This document shows positions 387 to 7,587 of a stretch of DNA of 8,641 bases, one piece after another. Position numbers and translations under genes: made by a program. The notes beneath the pieces were generated by a model. It was given only the letters and a program-made list of their open reading frames with translations, was not told the DNA's origin and did no database searches. Position 1 is the first letter of the stretch; each line of letters begins with the position of its first letter. The DNA comes from a virus. Its lineage: Duplodnaviria; Heunggongvirae; Uroviricota; Caudoviricetes. The stretch lies in IMG/VR virus record IMGVR_UViG_2671180299_000012; one strand, given 5' to 3'.

Positions 387-746
387 ATGCTCATAGATTT
401 GGTTTTACCTTACCCGCCGACAGTGAACACTTACTGGCGACGTCGTGGCAGCACATATTTTGTATCAAAAGCCGGGGAGCGTTATCGCCGGGCAGTGGCG
501 CTTATTGTTCGCCAGCAGCGACTGAAATTAAGCCTGTCCGGACGGCTGGCAATAAAAATTATTGCAGAGCCACCGGATAAGCGTCGTCGTGACCTGGACA
601 ATATTCTGAAAGCACCGCTGGATGCGCTGACGCATGCGGGAGTGCTCATTGATGACGAGCAGTTTGATGAAATCAATATTGTACGTGGTCAGCCAGTATC
701 TGGTGGACGGCTGGGTGTGAAGATTTACAAAATTGAGAGTGAGTGA
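387..746 (+). CDS. rusA: Holliday junction resolvase RusA (crossover junction endodeoxyribonuclease)
   Basis: 119-aa ORF with an AAAAGAGG Shine-Dalgarno 6 nt upstream of the ATG. The translation (LPYPPTVNTYWRRRG ... PDKRRRDLDNILKAPLDALTHAGVLIDDEQ ... SGGRLGVKIY) aligns along its full length with E. coli RusA, including the catalytic RRRDLDN acidic motif. Typical nin-region position upstream of Q. Confidence 0.9.
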   Translation: MLIDLVLPYPPTVNTYWRRRGSTYFVSKAGERYRRAVALIVRQQRLKLSLSGRLAIKIIAEPPDKRRRDLDNILKAPLDALTHAGVLIDDEQFDEINIVRGQPVSGGRLGVKIYKIESE

Positions 747-754
747 GCGTAAAT

Positions 755-1183
755 ATGATATATCCGGAAATTACAGGCAAAAGCGGCGAACATTTACGCC
801 TGAACACGCTGGAAGCAGTCTGGATCCAGGGGAAATTACGGATGTGGGGGCGGTGGTCGTATATCGGTGGGGGTAAATCCGGAAATATGTTTAACCGGTT
901 ACTGGTTTCGAAAAAGCTGACGAAAACAGCAGTTAATGAGGTTTTACGCAGCATGAAGAAATCCGGGCTGGAAAAACCGGAACTTGAGGCATTTTTTCGG
1001 GATATGACCAGAGGGAAGCAGAAGAGCTGGTTGTCACATTGTACAGACACAGAGGCGTTGATTATTGATCGCGTTATCAGTGAGGTGCTTGGGGAATATC
1101 CCGGGCTAATAAGGAAAGCTACCGGGAAGAATTACTTGTTCTCTGAAGATGCCGCCGTCAACACTGCGGTCAGAAAAAGATGA
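755..1183 (+). CDS. Late-gene antitermination protein Q-like (candidate)
   Basis: ORF in the canonical Q position, directly after rusA and before the lysis genes. I prefer the ATG at 755 because a GAGAG/GAGTGAG purine run precedes it; the in-frame GTG at 743 overlaps the rusA stop. The N-terminal LRMWGRWSY and the D..A.II......L...Y pattern loosely resemble small Q proteins of the QuuD type (Phage_antitermQ family). The assignment rests mainly on synteny. Confidence 0.5.
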   Translation: MIYPEITGKSGEHLRLNTLEAVWIQGKLRMWGRWSYIGGGKSGNMFNRLLVSKKLTKTAVNEVLRSMKKSGLEKPELEAFFRDMTRGKQKSWLSHCTDTEALIIDRVISEVLGEYPGLIRKATGKNYLFSEDAAVNTAVRKR

Positions 1184-1848: not shown

Positions 1849-2382
1849 ATGAACACCAAAATCAAATACGGCCTGTCGGCTGCCGTTCTGGCGCTGATTG
1901 CCGCTGGTGCGTCTGCGCCTGAAATTCTCGACCAGTTTCTTGACGAAAAAGAAGGTAACCACACCACGGCATACCGTGATGGTGCGGGTATCTGGACCAT
2001 CTGCCGTGGAGCCACCCGGGTGGATGGTAAGCCTGTTATTCCTGGCATGAAGCTGTCGAAGGGGAAATGCGACCAGGTTAACGCCATTGAGCGTGATAAG
2101 GCGCTGGCATGGGTGGCGAAAAACATCAAAGTGCCACTGACTGAACCCCAGAAAGCGGGTATTGCGTCATTCTGTCCTTACAACATTGGCCCAGGTAAGT
2201 GTTTCCCGTCGACGTTTTATAAACGAATTAATGCAGGCGATCGCAGGGGGGCGTGTGAGGCGATTCGCTGGTGGATTAAGGACGGTGGCAGAGACTGCCG
2301 TATTCGCTCAAACAACTGTTACGGTCAGGTATCCCGTCGCGACCAGGAGAGTGCGCTGGCGTGCTGGGGAATTGACAGATAA
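1849..2382 (+). CDS. SAR endolysin (phage lysozyme, T4-lysozyme-like GH24 fold with N-terminal signal-arrest-release domain)
   Basis: 177-aa ORF. The N-terminus YGLSAAVLALIAAGASAP is a weakly hydrophobic Gly/Ala/Ser-rich segment typical of SAR domains. It is followed by the catalytic E-x8-D-x5-T triad (E-GNHTTAYR-D-GAGIW-T). Overall similarity to P21 R and P1 Lyz type endolysins. Confidence 0.9.
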   Translation: MNTKIKYGLSAAVLALIAAGASAPEILDQFLDEKEGNHTTAYRDGAGIWTICRGATRVDGKPVIPGMKLSKGKCDQVNAIERDKALAWVAKNIKVPLTEPQKAGIASFCPYNIGPGKCFPSTFYKRINAGDRRGACEAIRWWIKDGGRDCRIRSNNCYGQVSRRDQESALACWGIDR

Positions 2383-2471
2383 GCAGAATATTTTGCTGAA
2401 AAATGCGGTTTGCTCGCACGGACGGATAACACGAAATCCTGCGAACTGACAAAAACTAAGTGAATAAAAGT

Positions 2472-2510
2472 AAAAACCCCGTTTGTTGGCTGCAAGCGGG
2501 GTTTTGTGTT
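2472..2510 (+). terminator. Rho-independent terminator downstream of the endolysin gene
   Basis: AAAAACCCCG (2472-2481), a 15-nt loop, then CGGGG (2497-2501) followed by TTTTGTGTTT. This is a GC-rich stem with a T-tract on the + strand and an A-tract on the other side, so it may act in both directions. Confidence 0.6.
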
Positions 2511-2541
2511 TCCTGACTCTGGAAAAGTCAAAGGAGAAAGT

Positions 2542-2679
2542 GTGTTTGATTTTAGCAAACTGATTCGGGAGATTCGAGTGATGGCTGAAAAATTATCCAC
2601 CTGGAAGTTCATTCTTATCTGGCTGGTGTTTGTGATTATGGCCTCCGGTTATTTCATCGGTCAGATACGCTGGTGGTGA
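2542..2679 (+). CDS. Small single-pass membrane peptide between endolysin and spanins (function unknown; candidate lysis accessory protein)
   Basis: 45-aa ORF from the GTG at 2542 (AAGGAG at 2531-2536, 5-nt spacer), or 32 aa from the ATG at 2581. It ends at TGA 2677-2679, one nucleotide before the Rz ATG. It contains one strongly hydrophobic stretch, WKFILIWLVFVIMASGYFIGQI. Below the 60-aa threshold of the ORF track. Confidence 0.4.
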   Translation: MFDFSKLIREIRVMAEKLSTWKFILIWLVFVIMASGYFIGQIRWW

Positions 2680-2680
2680 A

Positions 2681-3148
2681 ATGAACCGCGTACTGTGCGT
2701 GGTCATCATTGCCCTGCTGGTGGCCTGTGGTGCGCTTAGTCTGGGGCTGAATCATTACCGTGATAACGCCATAACCTACAAAGAGCAGCGCGATAAAAAA
2801 GTCAGTGAGCTGGAGCAGGCAAATGCAACCATTACTGATATGCAGCAGCGCCAGCGTGATGTTGCTGCACTTGATGCCAGATACTCGAGGGAATTAGCCG
2901 ATGCGAGAGCTGAAAATGAAACTCTTCGCGCTGACGTTGCCGCTGGTCGTAAGCGCCTGCGGATCAACGCCACCTGTCCAGGCTCCGTGCGTGAAGCCCC
3001 CGCCACCTCCGGCGTGGATAATGCAACCGGCCCCCAACTGGCAGACACCGTTACACGGGATTATTTCACCCTCAGAGAGCGGCTGATGACGATGCACAAG
3101 CAACTGGAAGGGGCACAGGACTATATCCGCACTCAGTGCCTGAAATAA
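2681..3148 (+). CDS. Rz-like inner-membrane spanin (i-spanin)
   Basis: 155-aa ORF with an N-terminal TM helix (VLCVVIIALLVACGALSLGL) and a charged, coiled-coil-prone periplasmic domain. It lies downstream of the endolysin and carries a nested +1-frame lipoprotein ORF, which is the classic Rz/Rz1 architecture. Confidence 0.85.
   Translation: MNRVLCVVIIALLVACGALSLGLNHYRDNAITYKEQRDKKVSELEQANATITDMQQRQRDVAALDARYSRELADARAENETLRADVAAGRKRLRINATCPGSVREAPATSGVDNATGPQLADTVTRDYFTLRERLMTMHKQLEGAQDYIRTQCLK
2901..3086 (+). CDS. Rz1-like outer-membrane lipoprotein spanin (o-spanin), embedded in the Rz gene in the +1 frame
   Basis: 61-aa ORF wholly inside Rz (alternative ATG at 2916). It has a signal peptide with a lipobox (LPLVVSAC) followed by a short proline-rich mature region (CGSTPPVQAPCVKPPPPPAW), the hallmark of Rz1 proteins. 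Confidence 0.8.
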   Translation: MRELKMKLFALTLPLVVSACGSTPPVQAPCVKPPPPPAWIMQPAPNWQTPLHGIISPSESG

Positions 3149-3480
3149 GTTTTGTTGATGCGCCGTATCGTCGCTGTATTCCCTCATTAACAGAGACCGC
3201 AGCCCGACAGGGAGACTCCTCTGCGCGAGTGTGCGGGGATAATCAAAAACGATACACACCGGGGTTTACCGCGTTAACGGAGCGCGGCGTTGTCCCCTCA
3301 TGGTCGCTGGTTCGGTGCGATGGTGGAAGAAACCGGACGATGTGTTACCTCGCAAGACCTGTTATGTCATGTGTCTGATTTGTGATTTAAGTCGGATAAT
3401 TGTCGTTGCCATTAAGCAGAGGATTGATGGCCGACAGGGTGGCATTGTTAGAATAAGACTTATTCTTATCTGTGCCGGGA

Positions 3481-3813
3481 ATGAAAATGAAAAGAAATCT
3501 TCCGTTAATTATTTTGTTGTCTTCTCTGGTTATGGGCTGTACGCAACATAAAACAGATATGCCCCGACAGTTGGTTAAGGCATTACCACAATATCCGGCC
3601 TATGCAGCGGCAAATTATATAAAGGGACGGGTTGATGTGAAGTTTGATATTGGTGCTGATGGTACTGTCACCCGAATTGAGTTTATCCGTTCAGAGCCGC
3701 ACCATCTGTTTGATGAGCAGGTTGTAAAGGCGATGGCAAAATGGCGATTTGAGAAGGACAGGCCGCGTAAAGGCGTGAAGAAAACGTTTATCTTTAGTCC
3801 TTCTGCACCCTGA
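3481..3813 (+). CDS. Lipoprotein with TonB C-terminal domain (phage moron; function unknown)
   Basis: ORF with possible starts at GTG 3472, ATG 3481 or ATG 3487. It has a signal peptide with a lipobox (LSSLVMGC) and Thr at +2. The mature part (YPAYAAANYIKGRVDVKFDIGADGTVTRIEFIRSEPHHLFDEQVVKAMAKWRFE) aligns residue by residue with the E. coli TonB C-terminal domain ([54 protein letters not shown]). There is no proline-rich spacer or N-terminal TM anchor. A possible sigma70 promoter lies upstream (TTGATG, ~19 nt, TAGAAT at about 3424-3454). Confidence 0.7.
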   Translation: MKMKRNLPLIILLSSLVMGCTQHKTDMPRQLVKALPQYPAYAAANYIKGRVDVKFDIGADGTVTRIEFIRSEPHHLFDEQVVKAMAKWRFEKDRPRKGVKKTFIFSPSAP

Positions 3814-3944
3814 TTATTTCATCAGAAATTAATTATCACTCTGTTGTTATTCTGTACATTCCGGCTGGGTAAGTCTTGTTCCGCCGGGTATGAAGATGAA
3901 ATATTGTTGGAGGACAGTGGGTACCTGCTCCTGTAACCGAACGT

Positions 3945-4169
3945 TCATTTCTCGTTATTTGTCATGCTGGCCGGGCGCAGATGCGTTGCATCTGTTGCCA
4001 GCCTTCTCCTGCAGGCTTCAATAACCCACGCTGAAAAGTTACCGGAACCTTTATGTTCAAGGGCGATATTGATCTGTTCAATCATGTGATTGGGAAACGG
4101 ATATTGCGGGTTGTGGTTCTGCGGGTCCGGTTTTTCGATGACATATTTATTTCCTTTACTGATTGCCAT
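3945..4169 (-). CDS. Arc/Mnt-like ribbon-helix-helix DNA-binding protein
   Basis: 74-aa minus-strand ORF. The segment PQYPFPNHMIEQINIALEHKGSGNFSAWVIEA matches the Arc pattern PQFNLRWPREVLDLVRKVAEENGRSVNSEIYQRV, with the beta-strand, first helix and G-x-S/N turn in register. It is divergent from the HNH gene with only 16 bp between the two start codons. Confidence 0.6.
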   Translation of the reverse strand: MAISKGNKYVIEKPDPQNHNPQYPFPNHMIEQINIALEHKGSGNFSAWVIEACRRRLATDATHLRPASMTNNEK

Positions 4170-4185
4170 ATGACGGGGATTTTAC

Positions 4186-4551
4186 ATGGCTGAGCTTCGT
4201 ACACTCCAGAGCAGAATCAAAACACTGAATACCCGACGGGTGAATATTCTGAAGGGTGAACAGCGTCGTGTCAGTGGCAGTGCACGTGTTTCCCTCAAGC
4301 GTCATATCTGGCTCAGGGACGCCGGGCAGTGCCGTCTCTGTGGTCGTGTGGTTGACCTCTGTGACAGTGAACTCGATCACCGAATTGCACTTCAGTTCGG
4401 TGGTGGTAATGAGGAGACGAATCTCTGGACGCTCTGTACCGAATGCCATCGACAAAAGTCTGCTCGTGAAGCGGCGAGTGATATGCCGGACCCGACGCTG
4501 CCGGAGGTGTCCGGAGGTAGTGGCAGAGAGGACGACATCATCGGACTGTAA
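4186..4551 (+). CDS. HNH endonuclease (packaging-associated HNH of cos-type, HK97-like phages)
   Basis: 121-aa ORF with a CRLCG ... DHRIALQFGGGNEETNLWTLCTECHRQK HNH/zinc-finger motif. It sits immediately upstream of the cos-like region and terS, the characteristic position of HNH proteins that assist terminase in HK97-like phages. Its last 23 codons (from 4483) lie inside tandem repeat copy 1. Confidence 0.85.
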   Translation: MAELRTLQSRIKTLNTRRVNILKGEQRRVSGSARVSLKRHIWLRDAGQCRLCGRVVDLCDSELDHRIALQFGGGNEETNLWTLCTECHRQKSAREAASDMPDPTLPEVSGGSGREDDIIGL

Positions 4552-5003
4552 CCCGACCCCGGGGGGGGTATCATCCGGCGTAAAAAACGATCGCTTTGGA
4601 CACCGCCCCCCGTCTCACGCAGAGAAAAAATTCCCGTTTCAGGGCAGTTAACATGTTAACTGGCTGTCCGGGCATTTTTGCGGTTTTTATCTTTATTATT
4701 CAGTTTGTTGCGTGGAAAAAATGTTAACAGGCTTTTTCAGCAAATGTTAACCAGGCAGCAGTTAACATTTGCGGCATGAGACGCCGGGAAAAATGGGCTG
4801 AACCATACCCGGCTGAGTGCGTTATGGACCCGGGAGGAGGCTGTGCTGACAACGCAAAAACGAAAATTTGCGCTGGCGCTCATGTCCGGGAAAAACAAAA
4901 CAGCGTCAGCCATTGCCGCTGGTTATTCGGCGAAGACCGCCAGGGTTAAAGGCTCGCAGCTGGCAAAAGATCCGGAGGTGCTTGCGTTTATAGCCCGTAA
5001 ACA
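4483..5003. repeat. Tandem direct repeat, copy 1 (~521 bp): HNH 3-prime tail + cos-like intergenic region + first 161 bp of terS
   Basis: Direct comparison with 5008..5526 gives about 13 differences in ~520 bp, including a 2-nt indel (ACCCC versus AGC before a G8 tract). The 161 bp of terS coding sequence is identical in both copies. Confidence 0.9.
4645..4768. promoter_or_regulatory. Putative cos / terminase-recognition region: 18-bp perfect palindrome plus ATGTTAAC motif array (copy 1)
   Basis: CAGTTAACATGTTAACTG (4645-4662) is a perfect 18-bp palindrome. Further ATGTTAAC motifs lie at 4721-4728 and 4744-4751, with the inverted form GTTAACAT at 4761-4768. The region sits between the HNH gene and terS, where cos lies in HK97/lambda-like phages. 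Function is inferred. Confidence 0.4.
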
Positions 5004-5076
5004 AGGTATGCCGGACCCGACGCTGCCGGAGGTGTCCGGAGGTAGTGGCAGAGCGGACGACATCATCGGACTGTAA
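4843..5076 (+). CDS. Duplication-derived chimeric ORF: terS N-terminal 55 codons fused to the duplicated HNH C-terminal tail (possible pseudogene or decoy)
   Basis: GTG start at 4843 with the same GGGAGGAGG RBS as the full terS. Residues 1-54 are identical to the terS N-terminus (MLTTQKRKFALALMSGKNKTASAIAAGYSAKTARVKGSQLAKDPEVLAFIARKQ). At the repeat junction (~5004-5007) it switches to GMPDPTLPEVSGGSGRADDIIGL, the HNH tail with one E-to-A change. Confidence 0.5.
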   Translation: MLTTQKRKFALALMSGKNKTASAIAAGYSAKTARVKGSQLAKDPEVLAFIARKQGMPDPTLPEVSGGSGRADDIIGL

Positions 5077-5526
5077 CCCGAGCGGGGGGGGTATCATCCG
5101 GCGTAAAAAACGATCGCTCCGGACACCGCGCCCCCTCTCACGCAGAGAAAAAATTCCCGTTTCAGGGCAGTTAACATGTTAACTGGCTGCCCGGGCATTT
5201 TTGCGGTTTTTATCTTTATTATTCAGTTTGTTGTGCGGAAAAAATGTTAACTGGCTTTTTCAGCAAATGTTAACCAGGCAGCAGTTAACATTTGCGGCAT
5301 GAGACGCCGGGAAAAATGGGCTGAACCATACCCGGCTGAGTGCGTTCTGGACCCGGGAGGAGGCTGTGCTGACAACGCAAAAACGAAAATTTGCGCTGGC
5401 GCTCATGTCCGGGAAAAACAAAACAGCGTCAGCCATTGCCGCTGGTTATTCGGCGAAGACCGCCAGGGTTAAAGGCTCGCAGCTGGCAAAAGATCCGGAG
5501 GTGCTTGCGTTTATAGCCCGTAAACA
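5008..5526. repeat. Tandem direct repeat, copy 2 (~519 bp)
   Basis: See copy 1. The offset between copies is 525 bp before the indel and 523 bp after it. Copy 2 runs directly into the remainder of the full-length terS. Confidence 0.9.
5168..5291. promoter_or_regulatory. Putative cos / terminase-recognition region (copy 2)
   Basis: Same 18-bp palindrome (5168-5185) and ATGTTAAC motifs (5244-5251, 5267-5274; inverted 5284-5291) as copy 1. All motif cores are identical between copies; the substitutions fall between them. Confidence 0.4.
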
Positions 5527-5929
5527 GTGCGAGACGGTGGAGGTGGATGAGGTTCCTGTTTACCGGCAGAAAAAATCAGAGCAGGAGGATAAACCCCGTC
5601 GCCGTGAGGCGGCTGCAATACCACAGCCGGACGAAAACAATCCGGAGATGCCACCGTCCGCGGTGATGTCTCCTGGTATTGAATATATGGAGGATGGTCT
5701 TCCCGATCCGGTGAAAGCCATGGGGCGGATCCTGGTGGAAAACCTCTGCATTGATCCGAAACTGGCACTGGATGCGGCCTGGCGTCTGGCGCAGTTCACG
5801 CACCATAAAAAAGGGGATACCGGGAAAAAATCGGCAAAAGGTGATGCCGCGAAAAAAGCGGCTAACCGTTTTGCGGTGCCACCGCCACCCCGACTGGTGG
5901 TGAATAACGATAATGAGGAAAGCGGATGA
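5366..5929 (+). CDS. Terminase small subunit (Terminase_2-type)
   Basis: 187-aa ORF with a GTG start and GGGAGGAGG RBS. The N-terminus LTTQKRKFALALMSGKNKTASAIAAGYSAKTARVKGSQLAKDPEV matches the conserved HTH DNA-binding region of small terminases. Its stop overlaps the terL start (ATGA at 5926-5929), indicating translational coupling. Confidence 0.85.
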   Translation: MLTTQKRKFALALMSGKNKTASAIAAGYSAKTARVKGSQLAKDPEVLAFIARKQCETVEVDEVPVYRQKKSEQEDKPRRREAAAIPQPDENNPEMPPSAVMSPGIEYMEDGLPDPVKAMGRILVENLCIDPKLALDAAWRLAQFTHHKKGDTGKKSAKGDAAKKAANRFAVPPPPRLVVNNDNEESG

Positions 5930-7587
5930 TACCTGTATGGAGCACAGCCTGCCCGGACTGGGCAGAGCGCCTGAAAAAGGGGCTGTCGATTATTCCGGAT
6001 CCGATTTATCCGGACGAGGCCGCACATGCCCTGGCGATTTTTAAACAACTGCGGATTGTGGATGCACCTGGTAGCCCGACGTTCGGGGAGTCCTGTGCAC
6101 CGTGGGTGTTTGACCTGGTGGCGGCCCTGTTTGGCTCCTACGATGCGCAGACCGGTGTACGCCATATCAAGGAAGTTTTTATCCTTATCCCCAAGAAAAA
6201 CTCGAAGTCCACGCTGGCCGCGGGGATCATGATGACGGCGCTGTTACTGAACTGGCGGCAGGCGGCGGGTTACACGATTCTGGCCCCGACTGTGGAGGTG
6301 GCGGCCAACGCCTTCAACCCTGCCCGGGATATGGTACGACGTGACGATGATCTGGATGACCTCTGCCAGGTACAGACCCATATCCGGACCATCACCCACA
6401 GGGTGACAGACACCACCCTGAAGGTGGTGGCAGCCGATCCGAATACGGTGTCCGGTATCAAGTCCGTGGGTACGCTGATTGATGAGTTGTGGCTGTTTGG
6501 CAAGCAGTGCAAGGCGGAGGACATGTTACGTGAAGCCATAGGCGGCCTTGCCTCCCGCCCGGAAGGGTTTGTGGTGTATACGACCACCCAGTCGAATGAA
6601 CCGCCCGCCGGGGTATTCAGACAGAAACTGCAGTACGCCCGGGATGTGCGCGACGGCAAAATTCATGATCCGCACTTTCTGCCGGTGATATTTGAATACC
6701 CTCCTGAAATGGTGGAAAGCGGGGCTCACCTGCTGATGGAAAACCTCGCCATGGTCAATCCGAATCTCGGCTATTCAGTGGATGAGGCCTTTCTGTACCG
6801 GGAGTACCGTAAAGCCCGGGAAGCCGGTGAAGAGACATTCCGGGGGTTCATGTCAAAACACGCCAATGTGGAAATTGGTCTTGCCCTGCGCTCTGACCGC
6901 TGGGCGGGGGCTGATTTCTGGGAAGAGCAGGGCCGTTGTATCAGCCTGGACGATATCCTGCGTCGTGCTGATGTGGTGACGGTGGGGATTGACGGCGGAG
7001 GGCTGGATGATCTGCTGGGGATGTATGTGATTGGGCGTGACCGGGAGACCCGCGAATGGCTGGGCTGGGGCCATGCCTGGGCGCATGAAACCGCGGTGGT
7101 CCGACGGAAGAGCGAGGCGTCCCGGTTTCAGGATCTTGTTGCCTGTGGAGATATGACCATTGTCCGGCGTGTCGGGGATGACACGGCGGAAGTGGCGGAA
7201 TATGTGCGTCGCATTCATGAGGCTGAGTTACTGGACCATATCGGTATTGACCCGTCAGGGGTGGGGCAGATTCTGGATTCACTGGCGGAAGCCGGGATCC
7301 CCGACGGAATTGTGGTGGGGATAAGCCAGGGCTGGAAACTGGGCGGGGCCATTAAAACCACCGAGCGCAAACTGGCTGAAGGGGTGCTGGTGCATGGTGA
7401 CCAGCCCCTGATGGCCTGGTGTGTCGGCAATGCCCGGGTGGAGCCTAAAGGTAACGCCATTCTTATCACCAAACAGGCCAGTGGACGGGGAAAAATTGAC
7501 CCGCTGATGGCGCTGTTCAATGCGGTCTCCCTGATGTCCCTTAACCCGGAACCGAAAAAGAAAGAATATGCGGTTTTTTTCATATAA
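5926..7587 (+). CDS. Terminase large subunit (HK97-like Terminase_1 family)
   Basis: 553-aa ORF with a deviant Walker A-like PKKNSKST, a Walker B-like LIDELW, and nuclease-domain acidic motifs (VTVGIDGGGLDDLLG, GIDPSG, KIDPLMALFNA). Its size and position right after terS fit a large terminase. Confidence 0.9.
   Translation: MIPVWSTACPDWAERLKKGLSIIPDPIYPDEAAHALAIFKQLRIVDAPGSPTFGESCAPWVFDLVAALFGSYDAQTGVRHIKEVFILIPKKNSKSTLAAGIMMTALLLNWRQAAGYTILAPTVEVAANAFNPARDMVRRDDDLDDLCQVQTHIRTITHRVTDTTLKVVAADPNTVSGIKSVGTLIDELWLFGKQCKAEDMLREAIGGLASRPEGFVVYTTTQSNEPPAGVFRQKLQYARDVRDGKIHDPHFLPVIFEYPPEMVESGAHLLMENLAMVNPNLGYSVDEAFLYREYRKAREAGEETFRGFMSKHANVEIGLALRSDRWAGADFWEEQGRCISLDDILRRADVVTVGIDGGGLDDLLGMYVIGRDRETREWLGWGHAWAHETAVVRRKSEASRFQDLVACGDMTIVRRVGDDTAEVAEYVRRIHEAELLDHIGIDPSGVGQILDSLAEAGIPDGIVVGISQGWKLGGAIKTTERKLAEGVLVHGDQPLMAWCVGNARVEPKGNAILITKQASGRGKIDPLMALFNAVSLMSLNPEPKKKEYAVFFI

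Follow-up and report, generated by a model that had tools for sequence, protein, structure and literature searches.

A lambdoid prophage lipoprotein consisting of a stand-alone TonB C-terminal domain: a candidate TonB-box decoy carried on a moron cassette

The window analysed here (an 8,641-nucleotide stretch of viral DNA, IMG/VR record IMGVR_UViG_2671180299_000012) is the 8.6-kb late region of a lambdoid Escherichia coli prophage, and it contains a gene for a 108-residue lipoprotein which carries a TonB C-terminal domain (TonB_C) and yet is not a TonB. As an earlier reading of the bare letters (hereafter the sequence-only reading) had claimed, hidden Markov models (HMM), the predicted fold and the translation all describe a stand-alone TonB C-terminal domain (CTD) on a predicted lipid anchor, with neither inner-membrane anchor nor proline-rich spacer. 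Besides this architecture and fold, we establish the boundaries of the cassette on which the gene lies, its distribution, the purifying selection acting on it and the existence of Fur boxes upstream of its chromosomal homologues. We propose, tentatively and with somewhat less than even confidence, that the lipoprotein is an outer-membrane TonB-box decoy, damping TonB-dependent entry.

A TonB C-terminal domain behind a lipoprotein signal peptide

The lipoprotein gene (its coordinates and those of all other features are collected in Table 1) is present in RefSeq with identical frame and start, under the name 'TonB family protein'. The ATG at 3487 is the supported start, being both the RefSeq start and the only candidate start (the in-frame alternatives are ATG 3481 and GTG 3472) in common with the phage 21 allele, in which an aligned AGGA is kept at the position of the Shine-Dalgarno sequence. 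The sequence-only reading had placed the open reading frame at 3424-3813; its end stands, whereas its start falls in noncoding DNA, on a -35-like hexamer.

Membership in the TonB_C domain family is far above chance, with matches to Pfam PF03544 (TonB_C; E=5.5e-15, 56 bits against a cut-off of 24.6) and to NCBIfam TIGR01352 (56.5 bits against a cut-off of 27.1). In a phmmer comparison with the PDB sequences, residues 26-104 align to TonB residues 153-231, the matching chains being those of the E. coli TonB CTD (1u07, 1xx3, 2gsk and 2grx; E=4.5e-16 to 1.8e-15), with identity at 31/78 residues (40%). The TonB motifs quoted beforehand from the translation are indeed found there, as GRVDVKFD (residues 47-54) and FDEQVVKAMAKWRFE (residues 75-89).

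Structure prediction leads to the same family. A first AlphaFold2 run, based on six near-identical sequences, gave a predicted local distance difference test (pLDDT) of 56 and was superseded by a run based on a 35-sequence alignment, with a mean pLDDT of 86.7 and with blocks over residues 31-100 at 95-98. The resulting model has strands at residues 28-30, 47-55, 61-70 and 94-103 and helices at 38-42 and 76-83, that is, the α/β fold of the TonB CTD with its three-stranded sheet and with β3 at the edge. The top Foldseek matches of this model are 1u07_A, 2gsk_B and 2grx_C (target-normalised template modelling score 0.88-0.93, root-mean-square deviation (rmsd) 1.0-1.1 Å), followed by TonB homologues of Salmonella and Pseudomonas and then by Pectobacterium FusB. 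An HMM search ending in an unrelated fold had been named in advance as an outcome that would speak against a TonB domain; what the HMM and fold searches returned instead is the TonB CTD.

At the residue level, the YP motif (Y36-P37) aligns with TonB Y163-P164, and the aromatic residues F53, F75, W86, F88 and F103 align with TonB F180, F202, W213, Y215 and F230, respectively. G186 of TonB is kept, R158 is replaced by lysine, and P34, Y36 and P37 vary little or not at all across the family. The chain stops five residues past β3 (94-103), with a C-terminus (KKTFIFSPSAP) that contains no transmembrane segment and that has no counterpart of TonB residues 232-239.

The protein falls below the cut-offs of all equivalog models for full-length TonB (NF008080-NF008084; 50-73 bits against 265-448), and the N-terminal inner-membrane anchor helix and the proline-rich spacer of an energy transducer are both missing, the length of 108 residues leaving no room for either. 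The protein begins with a lipoprotein signal peptide, MKRN-LPLIILLSSLVM-G-C18-T19, in which the lipobox is followed by a residue other than Asp at position +2. Throughout the short family members that were aligned, the lipobox Cys is invariant and position +2 is occupied by T, S, A or V, and never by Asp (29/29). In E. coli, the residue at +2 governs the destination of a lipoprotein, and Thr at this position predicts Lol-dependent sorting to the outer membrane. Under this rule, Thr19 (the residue singled out by the sequence-only reading, and confirmed in the sequence) predicts Lol-dependent sorting of the lipoprotein, which would place it in the outer membrane.

The moron cassette, its neighbours and its expression signals

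The gene lies on a discrete cassette, whose limits are given by comparison with a prophage lacking it. The window and this prophage (L015, NZ_CP028483) are collinear, at 94-99% identity, with window positions 3158-3339 corresponding to L015 positions 2501-2682 and window positions 3935-5004 to L015 positions 2674-3743; the gene is missing from L015. The GC content of the cassette is 43%, and that of its flanks 58% and 56%. At its two ends there are 9-mer junction repeats, identical at 8/9 positions, of which L015 has one copy. The cassette is a moron as regards its discreteness and absence from a collinear genome and its deviant base composition; the 604-bp indel may have arisen by insertion or by deletion through microhomology. 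The cassette is present or absent among near-identical prophages, and in the loci without it the upstream block directly abuts the ylcI/ynfO stop codon. The 601 bp around the gene (window 3300-3900) are 100% identical to prophages of Shiga toxin-producing E. coli (STEC) strains, and 98% identical to phage JLK-2012, Lys8385Vzw and four Stx1a-converting phages.

The intergenic block immediately upstream of the cassette (3159-3339) is present in 4145/5426 complete E. coli genomes, with up to 11 copies per genome. ColV-type plasmids have it too, upstream of iss. Between the window and phage 21 its conservation exceeds that of the lipoprotein gene, its reading frames are disrupted by indels between lineages, and Rfam contains no match to it. 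For this block, a role as regulator or RNA specific to the cassette was considered and rejected, given that it is generic in these genomes, present without the cassette and located upstream of plasmid iss. The block is unannotated, and we raise as a question whether it may be the bor/iss promoter region.

The position of the gene between Rz/Rz1 and ylcI is the post-lysis moron slot, the one used by lambda for bor, as the sequence-only reading had noted; phage 21 has bor beside the gene. This slot in common with bor/iss (the genes are adjacent in phage 21 and UTI89), together with the predicted outer-membrane lipoprotein nature and the similar size, would suit an envelope or virulence moron like Bor/Iss or Pal, acting in outer-membrane stability, as a peptidoglycan tether or in serum and host interaction, and using the TonB-like fold as no more than a general-purpose binding module. 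Affinity for peptidoglycan has been proposed for the TonB CTD, and TolA domain III, which has a related fold, is found among the weak fold matches. We regard this explanation as improbable, considering that the lipoprotein shows no sequence relation to Bor/Iss, that it is close to true TonB CTDs (40% identity, rmsd ~1 Å) and retains their YP motif and aromatic positions, and that the Fur boxes of its homologues (see below) indicate iron and not envelope stress.

A role in lysis, as a spanin or spanin accessory, is what the PHROG database would suggest, given the match to phrog_1267 ('Rz-like spanin', 1.9e-42), and in four phage lineages the lipoprotein gene does come directly behind the lysis cassette (those of E. 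coli, phage 21, a Klebsiella phage and a Rahnella prophage, the gene being followed in each by the terminase or the cos site). This role is nevertheless extremely improbable: a complete Rz/Rz1 pair exists upstream, 338 bp lie between Rz and the gene, which is located on a dispensable cassette, the C-terminal transmembrane segment that a unimolecular spanin needs is missing, the globular TonB fold is unlike a short Pro-rich o-spanin, and the chromosomal homologues have no lysis genes nearby. The PHROG label was discarded on account of the Rz/Rz1 pair, the C-terminus, the fold and these chromosomal copies.

The gene and the late lysis genes lie on one strand, with nothing resembling a terminator behind Rz, so that read-through from the late promoter is expected; a scan of positions 3000-4300 returned no terminator, including between Rz and the gene. 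An own promoter, which the sequence-only reading had put forward, is plausible. The candidate found by eye (Table 1) is partly conserved in the phage 21 allele, where ATTGT(T/C)AGAATAAGAC is kept within a poorly conserved stretch; the -10 is thus shared, but the -35 is not, and a consensus scan of 3000-4300 allowing 16-18-nt spacers recognised no plus-strand promoter. In the 3' part of the cassette, folding is no better than in shuffled sequences (z=-0.36).

Elsewhere in the window, a tandem duplication of ~524 bp (4482-5006 and 5007-5530, with copies 95-97% identical) takes in the 3' end of the HNH gene and some 55 codons from the start of terS, together with the intergenic region, which is likely the cos region. 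One consequence is a chimeric open reading frame (4843-5076), in which the N-terminus of terS (Terminase_2, 4.9e-9) is followed by an HNH-like C-terminal tail; in the related prophages L001 and L015 the duplicated region is single-copy. Additionally, the open reading frames 1149-1370 and 1405-1812, between the Q-like gene and the lysozyme gene, match successive parts (positions 110-160 and 162-296) of phrog_1085, a family of unknown function, and have the look of one gene that was split or frameshifted. Upstream of the lysozyme gene, no holin was identified in the window.

Table 1. Positions of the features discussed, in the window and in the loci of chromosomal homologues.
Feature	Sequence	Position	Strand	Details and basis
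RusA	window	387-746		
DUF1133/Q-like protein	window	743-1183		
Phage lysozyme	window	1849-2382		
Rz i-spanin	window	2681-3148	+	Pfam Phage_lysis 4.5e-47
Rz1 o-spanin, embedded in Rz	window	2901-3086	+	Pfam Rz1 4.4e-20
Generic lambdoid intergenic block, outside the cassette	window	3159-3339		
Left junction repeat	window	3331-3339		AACCGGACG
Moron cassette, 604 bp (5' region, gene, 3' region)	window	3340-3943	+	gap in collinear prophage L015
Candidate promoter	window	3424-3454	+	-35 TTGATG (3424-3429), 19-nt spacer, extended -10 TGtTAGAAT (3446-3454); by eye
Palindrome	window	3450-3466		AGAATAAG-a-CTTATTCT; overlaps the Fur-box-like site
Weak Fur-box-like site	window	3452-3470		13/19; 16 nt before ATG
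Shine-Dalgarno sequence GGGA	window	3477-3480	+	6 nt 5' of ATG 3487; read from sequence
TonB_C lipoprotein coding sequence, 108 residues	window	3487-3813	+	stop codon 3811-3813; open reading frame list, RefSeq, Pfam/NCBIfam/PDB matches
Lipoprotein signal peptide, codons 1-18	window	3487-3540	+	n-region MKRN, h-region LPLIILLSSLVM, lipobox LVMGC18; sequence
Tether, residues 19-25 (TQHKTDM), lipidated Cys to domain	window	3541-3561	+	pLDDT low before residue 26; PDB alignment begins at 24-26
TonB C-terminal domain, residues 26-105	window	3562-3801	+	AlphaFold2 model, Foldseek, HMM matches
Right junction repeat	window	3935-3943		AACCGAACG
YlcI/YnfO (DUF3950) gene, convergent; right-hand limit of cassette	window	3945-4169	-	Pfam DUF3950 5.8e-20; RefSeq
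HNH endonuclease	window	4186-4551		
Terminase small subunit (terS)	window	5366-5929		
Terminase large subunit	window	5926-7587		
Fur box of chromosomal homologue	L017	4965-4983		17/19, TATAATGATAATCTTTATC
Fur box of chromosomal homologue	L007	8037-8055		16/19
Fur box of chromosomal homologue	L016	4966-4984		16/19
Fur box of chromosomal homologue	L012	7971-7989		14/19
Fur box of chromosomal homologue	L018	4971-4989		14/19

Distribution, selection and the link with iron

The gene is common in E. coli. The window-type allele is present in 417/5426 complete genomes and the phage-21-type allele in 1225/5426 (1203 of these at 99% identity or above), the latter including the uropathogenic E. coli (UPEC) strain UTI89. 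Other carriers are lambdoid phage 21 itself, whose depositors named the gene product 'TonB C-terminal domain protein', as well as the phages ev017 and Perceval and the PhiR phages. More distant homologues exist in the Klebsiella phage ST13-OXA48phi12.4 (40% identity) and in a Rahnella prophage (35% identity). A profile search over 1.84 billion representative proteins (E <= 1e-10) returned 212 proteins, many of them short (104-133 residues) and matching from the signal peptide onward; the named short lipoproteins come from Escherichia, Klebsiella, Rahnella, Pantoea, Erwinia and one Salmonella-labelled genome. The Pantoea and Erwinia copies are chromosomal singletons amid ordinary metabolic genes. 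In one of these loci (L017, positions 2208-4739), the homologue adjoins an integrase fragment and a 360-residue protein with a pore-forming colicin domain (PF01024), a neighbour that would deserve attention if protection against TonB-dependent bacteriocins is a function of the family.

The window and phage 21 alleles share 71% protein identity, with a ratio of nonsynonymous to synonymous substitution rates (dN/dS) of 0.12 and saturated dS (~1.5). Judged from the sequence, the gene is functional and not a dead tonB fragment, because of this low dN/dS, the invariant lipobox Cys and the identity to TonB of only 40%. The opposite explanation, a decaying and non-functional remnant of a captured piece of tonB, could appeal to older records reading 'partial tonB-like membrane protein', to the frameshifts of several phage-21-type alleles (see below) and to the prophage of strain E2863, which ends ~12 kb from the host tonB (L023 12192-12911). 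This explanation is very improbable, since the protein begins with a conserved signal peptide and lipobox of its own, absent from TonB, since dN/dS is low at saturated dS, since only 40% of its residues are identical to E. coli TonB, since the family extends over Escherichia, Klebsiella, Rahnella, Pantoea and Erwinia, and since 1203 of the 1225 phage-21-type genomes carry the allele at 99% identity or above. For E2863, the idea that the gene was captured recently from the host tonB nearby was rejected on the same identity of only 40%, and because of it the nearness of this prophage to tonB is probably a coincidence.

The upstream regions of the homologues point to iron. For each homologue, the 150 nt upstream were scored against the 19-bp Fur consensus GATAATGATAATCATTATC, using 2000 shuffles of the upstream region for comparison. 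Matches of 14-17/19 were found in 5/7 chromosomal Pantoea/Erwinia loci, 11-17 nt before the start codon and overlapping a TATAAT-like -10 (Table 1); the 16-17/19 sites were reached by 0/2000 shuffles, and the 14/19 sites by 0.005-0.008 of the shuffles. Because these upstream matches are strong, the chromosomal members are very probably Fur-repressed and made with the TonB-dependent transporters under iron starvation, which, as far as upstream sequences can tell, implies that the Erwiniaceae have a Fur-regulated TonB_C lipoprotein family not described before.

In the phage copies, a remnant of this control may persist. The Fur-box-like site of the window has an offset (16 nt) like that of the Pantoea/Erwinia boxes and is tied for best in the whole window, its score of 13/19 being reached by 0.03-0.05 of the shuffles or random windows; we consider it marginal, a lead and not a claim. 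The Klebsiella phage has a match of 12/19 at 18 nt, and the phage 21 allele has none, nor does it conserve the palindrome.

A second tie is one of gene content. Both phage 21 (L020 7468-10917) and the icd-integrated prophage of UTI89 (L022 2848-6297) carry together sitABCD, iss/bor and the lipoprotein gene, SitABCD being a TonB-independent Fe/Mn importer; the UTI89 prophage is also annotated with an ompC-like porin. In the STEC lineage of the window, effectors of the type III secretion system (T3SS) are found in place of sitABCD. The Fur boxes and the co-carriage with sitABCD tie the family to iron/TonB physiology, and leave the sign of the effect unfixed.

This sign could be positive, with the lipoprotein acting as a positive or homeostatic accessory of TonB-dependent uptake, which would tune the transporters under iron limitation and bring the lysogen an iron benefit instead of exclusion. 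Its partners would then be periplasmic binding proteins (FhuD or BtuF, for example), a substrate or the periplasmic domain of ExbD, other than or beside TonB boxes. The TonB CTD binds FhuD and BtuF. The CTD of FusB binds ferredoxin directly (PDB 9hi3, among the fold matches), the near-consensus Fur boxes on 5/7 chromosomal homologues indicate that these are probably induced by iron starvation with the transporters, and sitABCD, iss and the lipoprotein gene are combined in phage 21 and the UTI89 icd prophage. Even so, we judge such an accessory unlikely: a domain fixed at the outer membrane cannot pull on the transporter plug, so that its occupancy of a TonB box should inhibit, and soluble TonB fragments, when overexpressed, do inhibit (see below). 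Moreover, the window's STEC lineage has T3SS effectors and no sitABCD, and no Fur box precedes the phage 21 allele.

The proposed decoy and its relation to known systems

The decoy that we infer, located in the outer membrane, binding TonB boxes, inhibitory in sign and expressed in the lysogen, would work as follows; the sequence-only reading had likewise suggested a TonB-box decoy or superinfection-exclusion factor, which could block TonB-dependent phages and colicins or modulate iron uptake. The seven-residue tether would hold the folded TonB CTD at the periplasmic face of the outer membrane. As the lipoprotein lacks an inner-membrane anchor, a Pro-rich spacer and any link to ExbB/ExbD, it is unable to transduce energy. 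Its exposed β3 edge (94-103) would pair by β-augmentation with TonB boxes, either of transporters such as FhuA, BtuB, FepA and Cir or of imported colicins. In this way it would compete with the scarce host TonB and damp TonB-dependent uptake, the outcome being a broad resistance to TonB-dependent phages, colicins and microcins, at a cost in siderophore and B12 uptake. Expression in the lysogen may proceed from its own weak promoter, possibly iron-responsive, besides late transcription.

Such a decoy is plausible because periplasmic fragments of TonB are dominant-negative: overexpression of periplasmic TonB(33-239) and of the fragments 103-239 and 122-239 inhibits the TonB system and abolishes ferrichrome transport (bioRxiv 10.1101/2020.01.05.895219). 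Furthermore, outer-membrane phage lipoproteins that inactivate FhuA from the periplasmic side exist, namely Llp and Cor (bioRxiv 10.64898/2026.03.26.714494; PMC11436027). In a 2024 review on superinfection exclusion, Cor is the sole entry for TonB-dependent receptors. Self-exclusion, with the carrier phage itself using a TonB-dependent receptor, was considered as well: the prophage stretches inspected contain no annotated cor gene, and the cassette varies between near-identical prophages. Among the viral structures of BFVD none has the fold of the lipoprotein at E <= 0.001.

Several observations weigh against the decoy. TonB Q160 and R166 correspond to L33 and Y39 in the lipoprotein, so that these positions are unconserved, and position 160 is variable across the family. 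The promoter is a match found by eye, with a 19-nt spacer, and the Fur-like site of the window is weak (13/19) and has no equivalent in the phage 21 allele. Fur control of the chromosomal homologues would be odd for a pure inhibitor of iron uptake. Selection appears uneven, with several phage-21-type alleles (P0012, P0013, P0015, P0018, P0019 and P0021, one cluster comprising 130 sequences) frameshifted near codon 90-95 and deprived of β3; these frameshifts may be due to pseudogenisation, or to sequencing or assembly error at a slippery site. PADLOC defence models gave no match, and our literature search found no functional study of the lipoprotein and no phage TonB-domain decoy or TonB-domain lipoprotein. 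As to L33, its resemblance to Q160L, which is the classical suppressor of mutations in the TonB boxes of FhuA and colicin M (PMC11658791), is treated as a coincidence and given no weight, since position 160 varies across the family.

A more extended version of the decoy is doubtful. In it, this one 108-residue lipoprotein uncouples many TonB-dependent transporters from TonB simultaneously and gives lysogens broad exclusion, SitABCD could offset the iron cost in the phage 21/ExPEC lineage, and the Fur-regulated Erwiniaceae homologues form a host-encoded shield that comes on upon derepression of the transporters. The gene is known to databases; its architecture is unstudied as far as our literature search reached, and a new exclusion mechanism is plausible. 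If the decoy holds true, exclusion would take place at the energy-coupling step common to all TonB-dependent gates, unlike the masking of a single receptor by Cor or Llp. Given that the gene is common, including in STEC, UPEC UTI89 and the classic phage 21, it could affect host range in phage therapy, and also colicin/microcin ecology, the uptake of siderophore-antibiotics ('Trojan horse') and iron acquisition by pathogens. A natural TonB-box-binding module would additionally be a potential tool, and the results point to an unstudied Fur-regulated lipoprotein family in the Erwiniaceae.

One of the closest known systems is the E. coli TonB CTD (residues ~150-239; 1u07, 2gsk chain B, 2grx chain C), with which the lipoprotein shares family, fold, YP motif and aromatic core, as well as β3, the strand that pairs with the TonB box in 2gsk and 2grx. 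It differs from TonB in lacking the N-terminal transmembrane helix, the Pro-rich spacer and the coupling to ExbB/ExbD, in its predicted lipid anchor in the opposite membrane, in ending five residues past β3 and in the Leu and Tyr at the positions of Q160 and R166. Lambda Bor and the Iss of plasmids and prophages are outer-membrane lipoprotein morons of the same post-lysis slot, adjoining the lipoprotein gene in phage 21 and UTI89; bor/iss, however, are on the opposite strand, their function (serum resistance) is unrelated to TonB, and they have no sequence or fold relation to the lipoprotein. The engineered periplasmic fragments of TonB (33-239, 103-239 and 122-239) likewise place an uncoupled TonB domain in the periplasm, and are the mechanistic precedent for a decoy, but they are soluble laboratory constructs derived from the host TonB, whereas the lipoprotein is natural, diverged and predicted to be lipid-anchored through a seven-residue tether. 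Finally, T5 Llp and the Cor of phi80 and N15 are likewise small phage lipoproteins of the outer membrane, acting on FhuA from the periplasm. Their fold is unrelated to that of the lipoprotein, which gave no Llp/Cor match in the PHROG, Pfam and PDB fold searches, and, whereas they are specific for FhuA and act allosterically on its surface loops, the decoy would act on many transporters, and at the step of energy coupling instead of phage binding.

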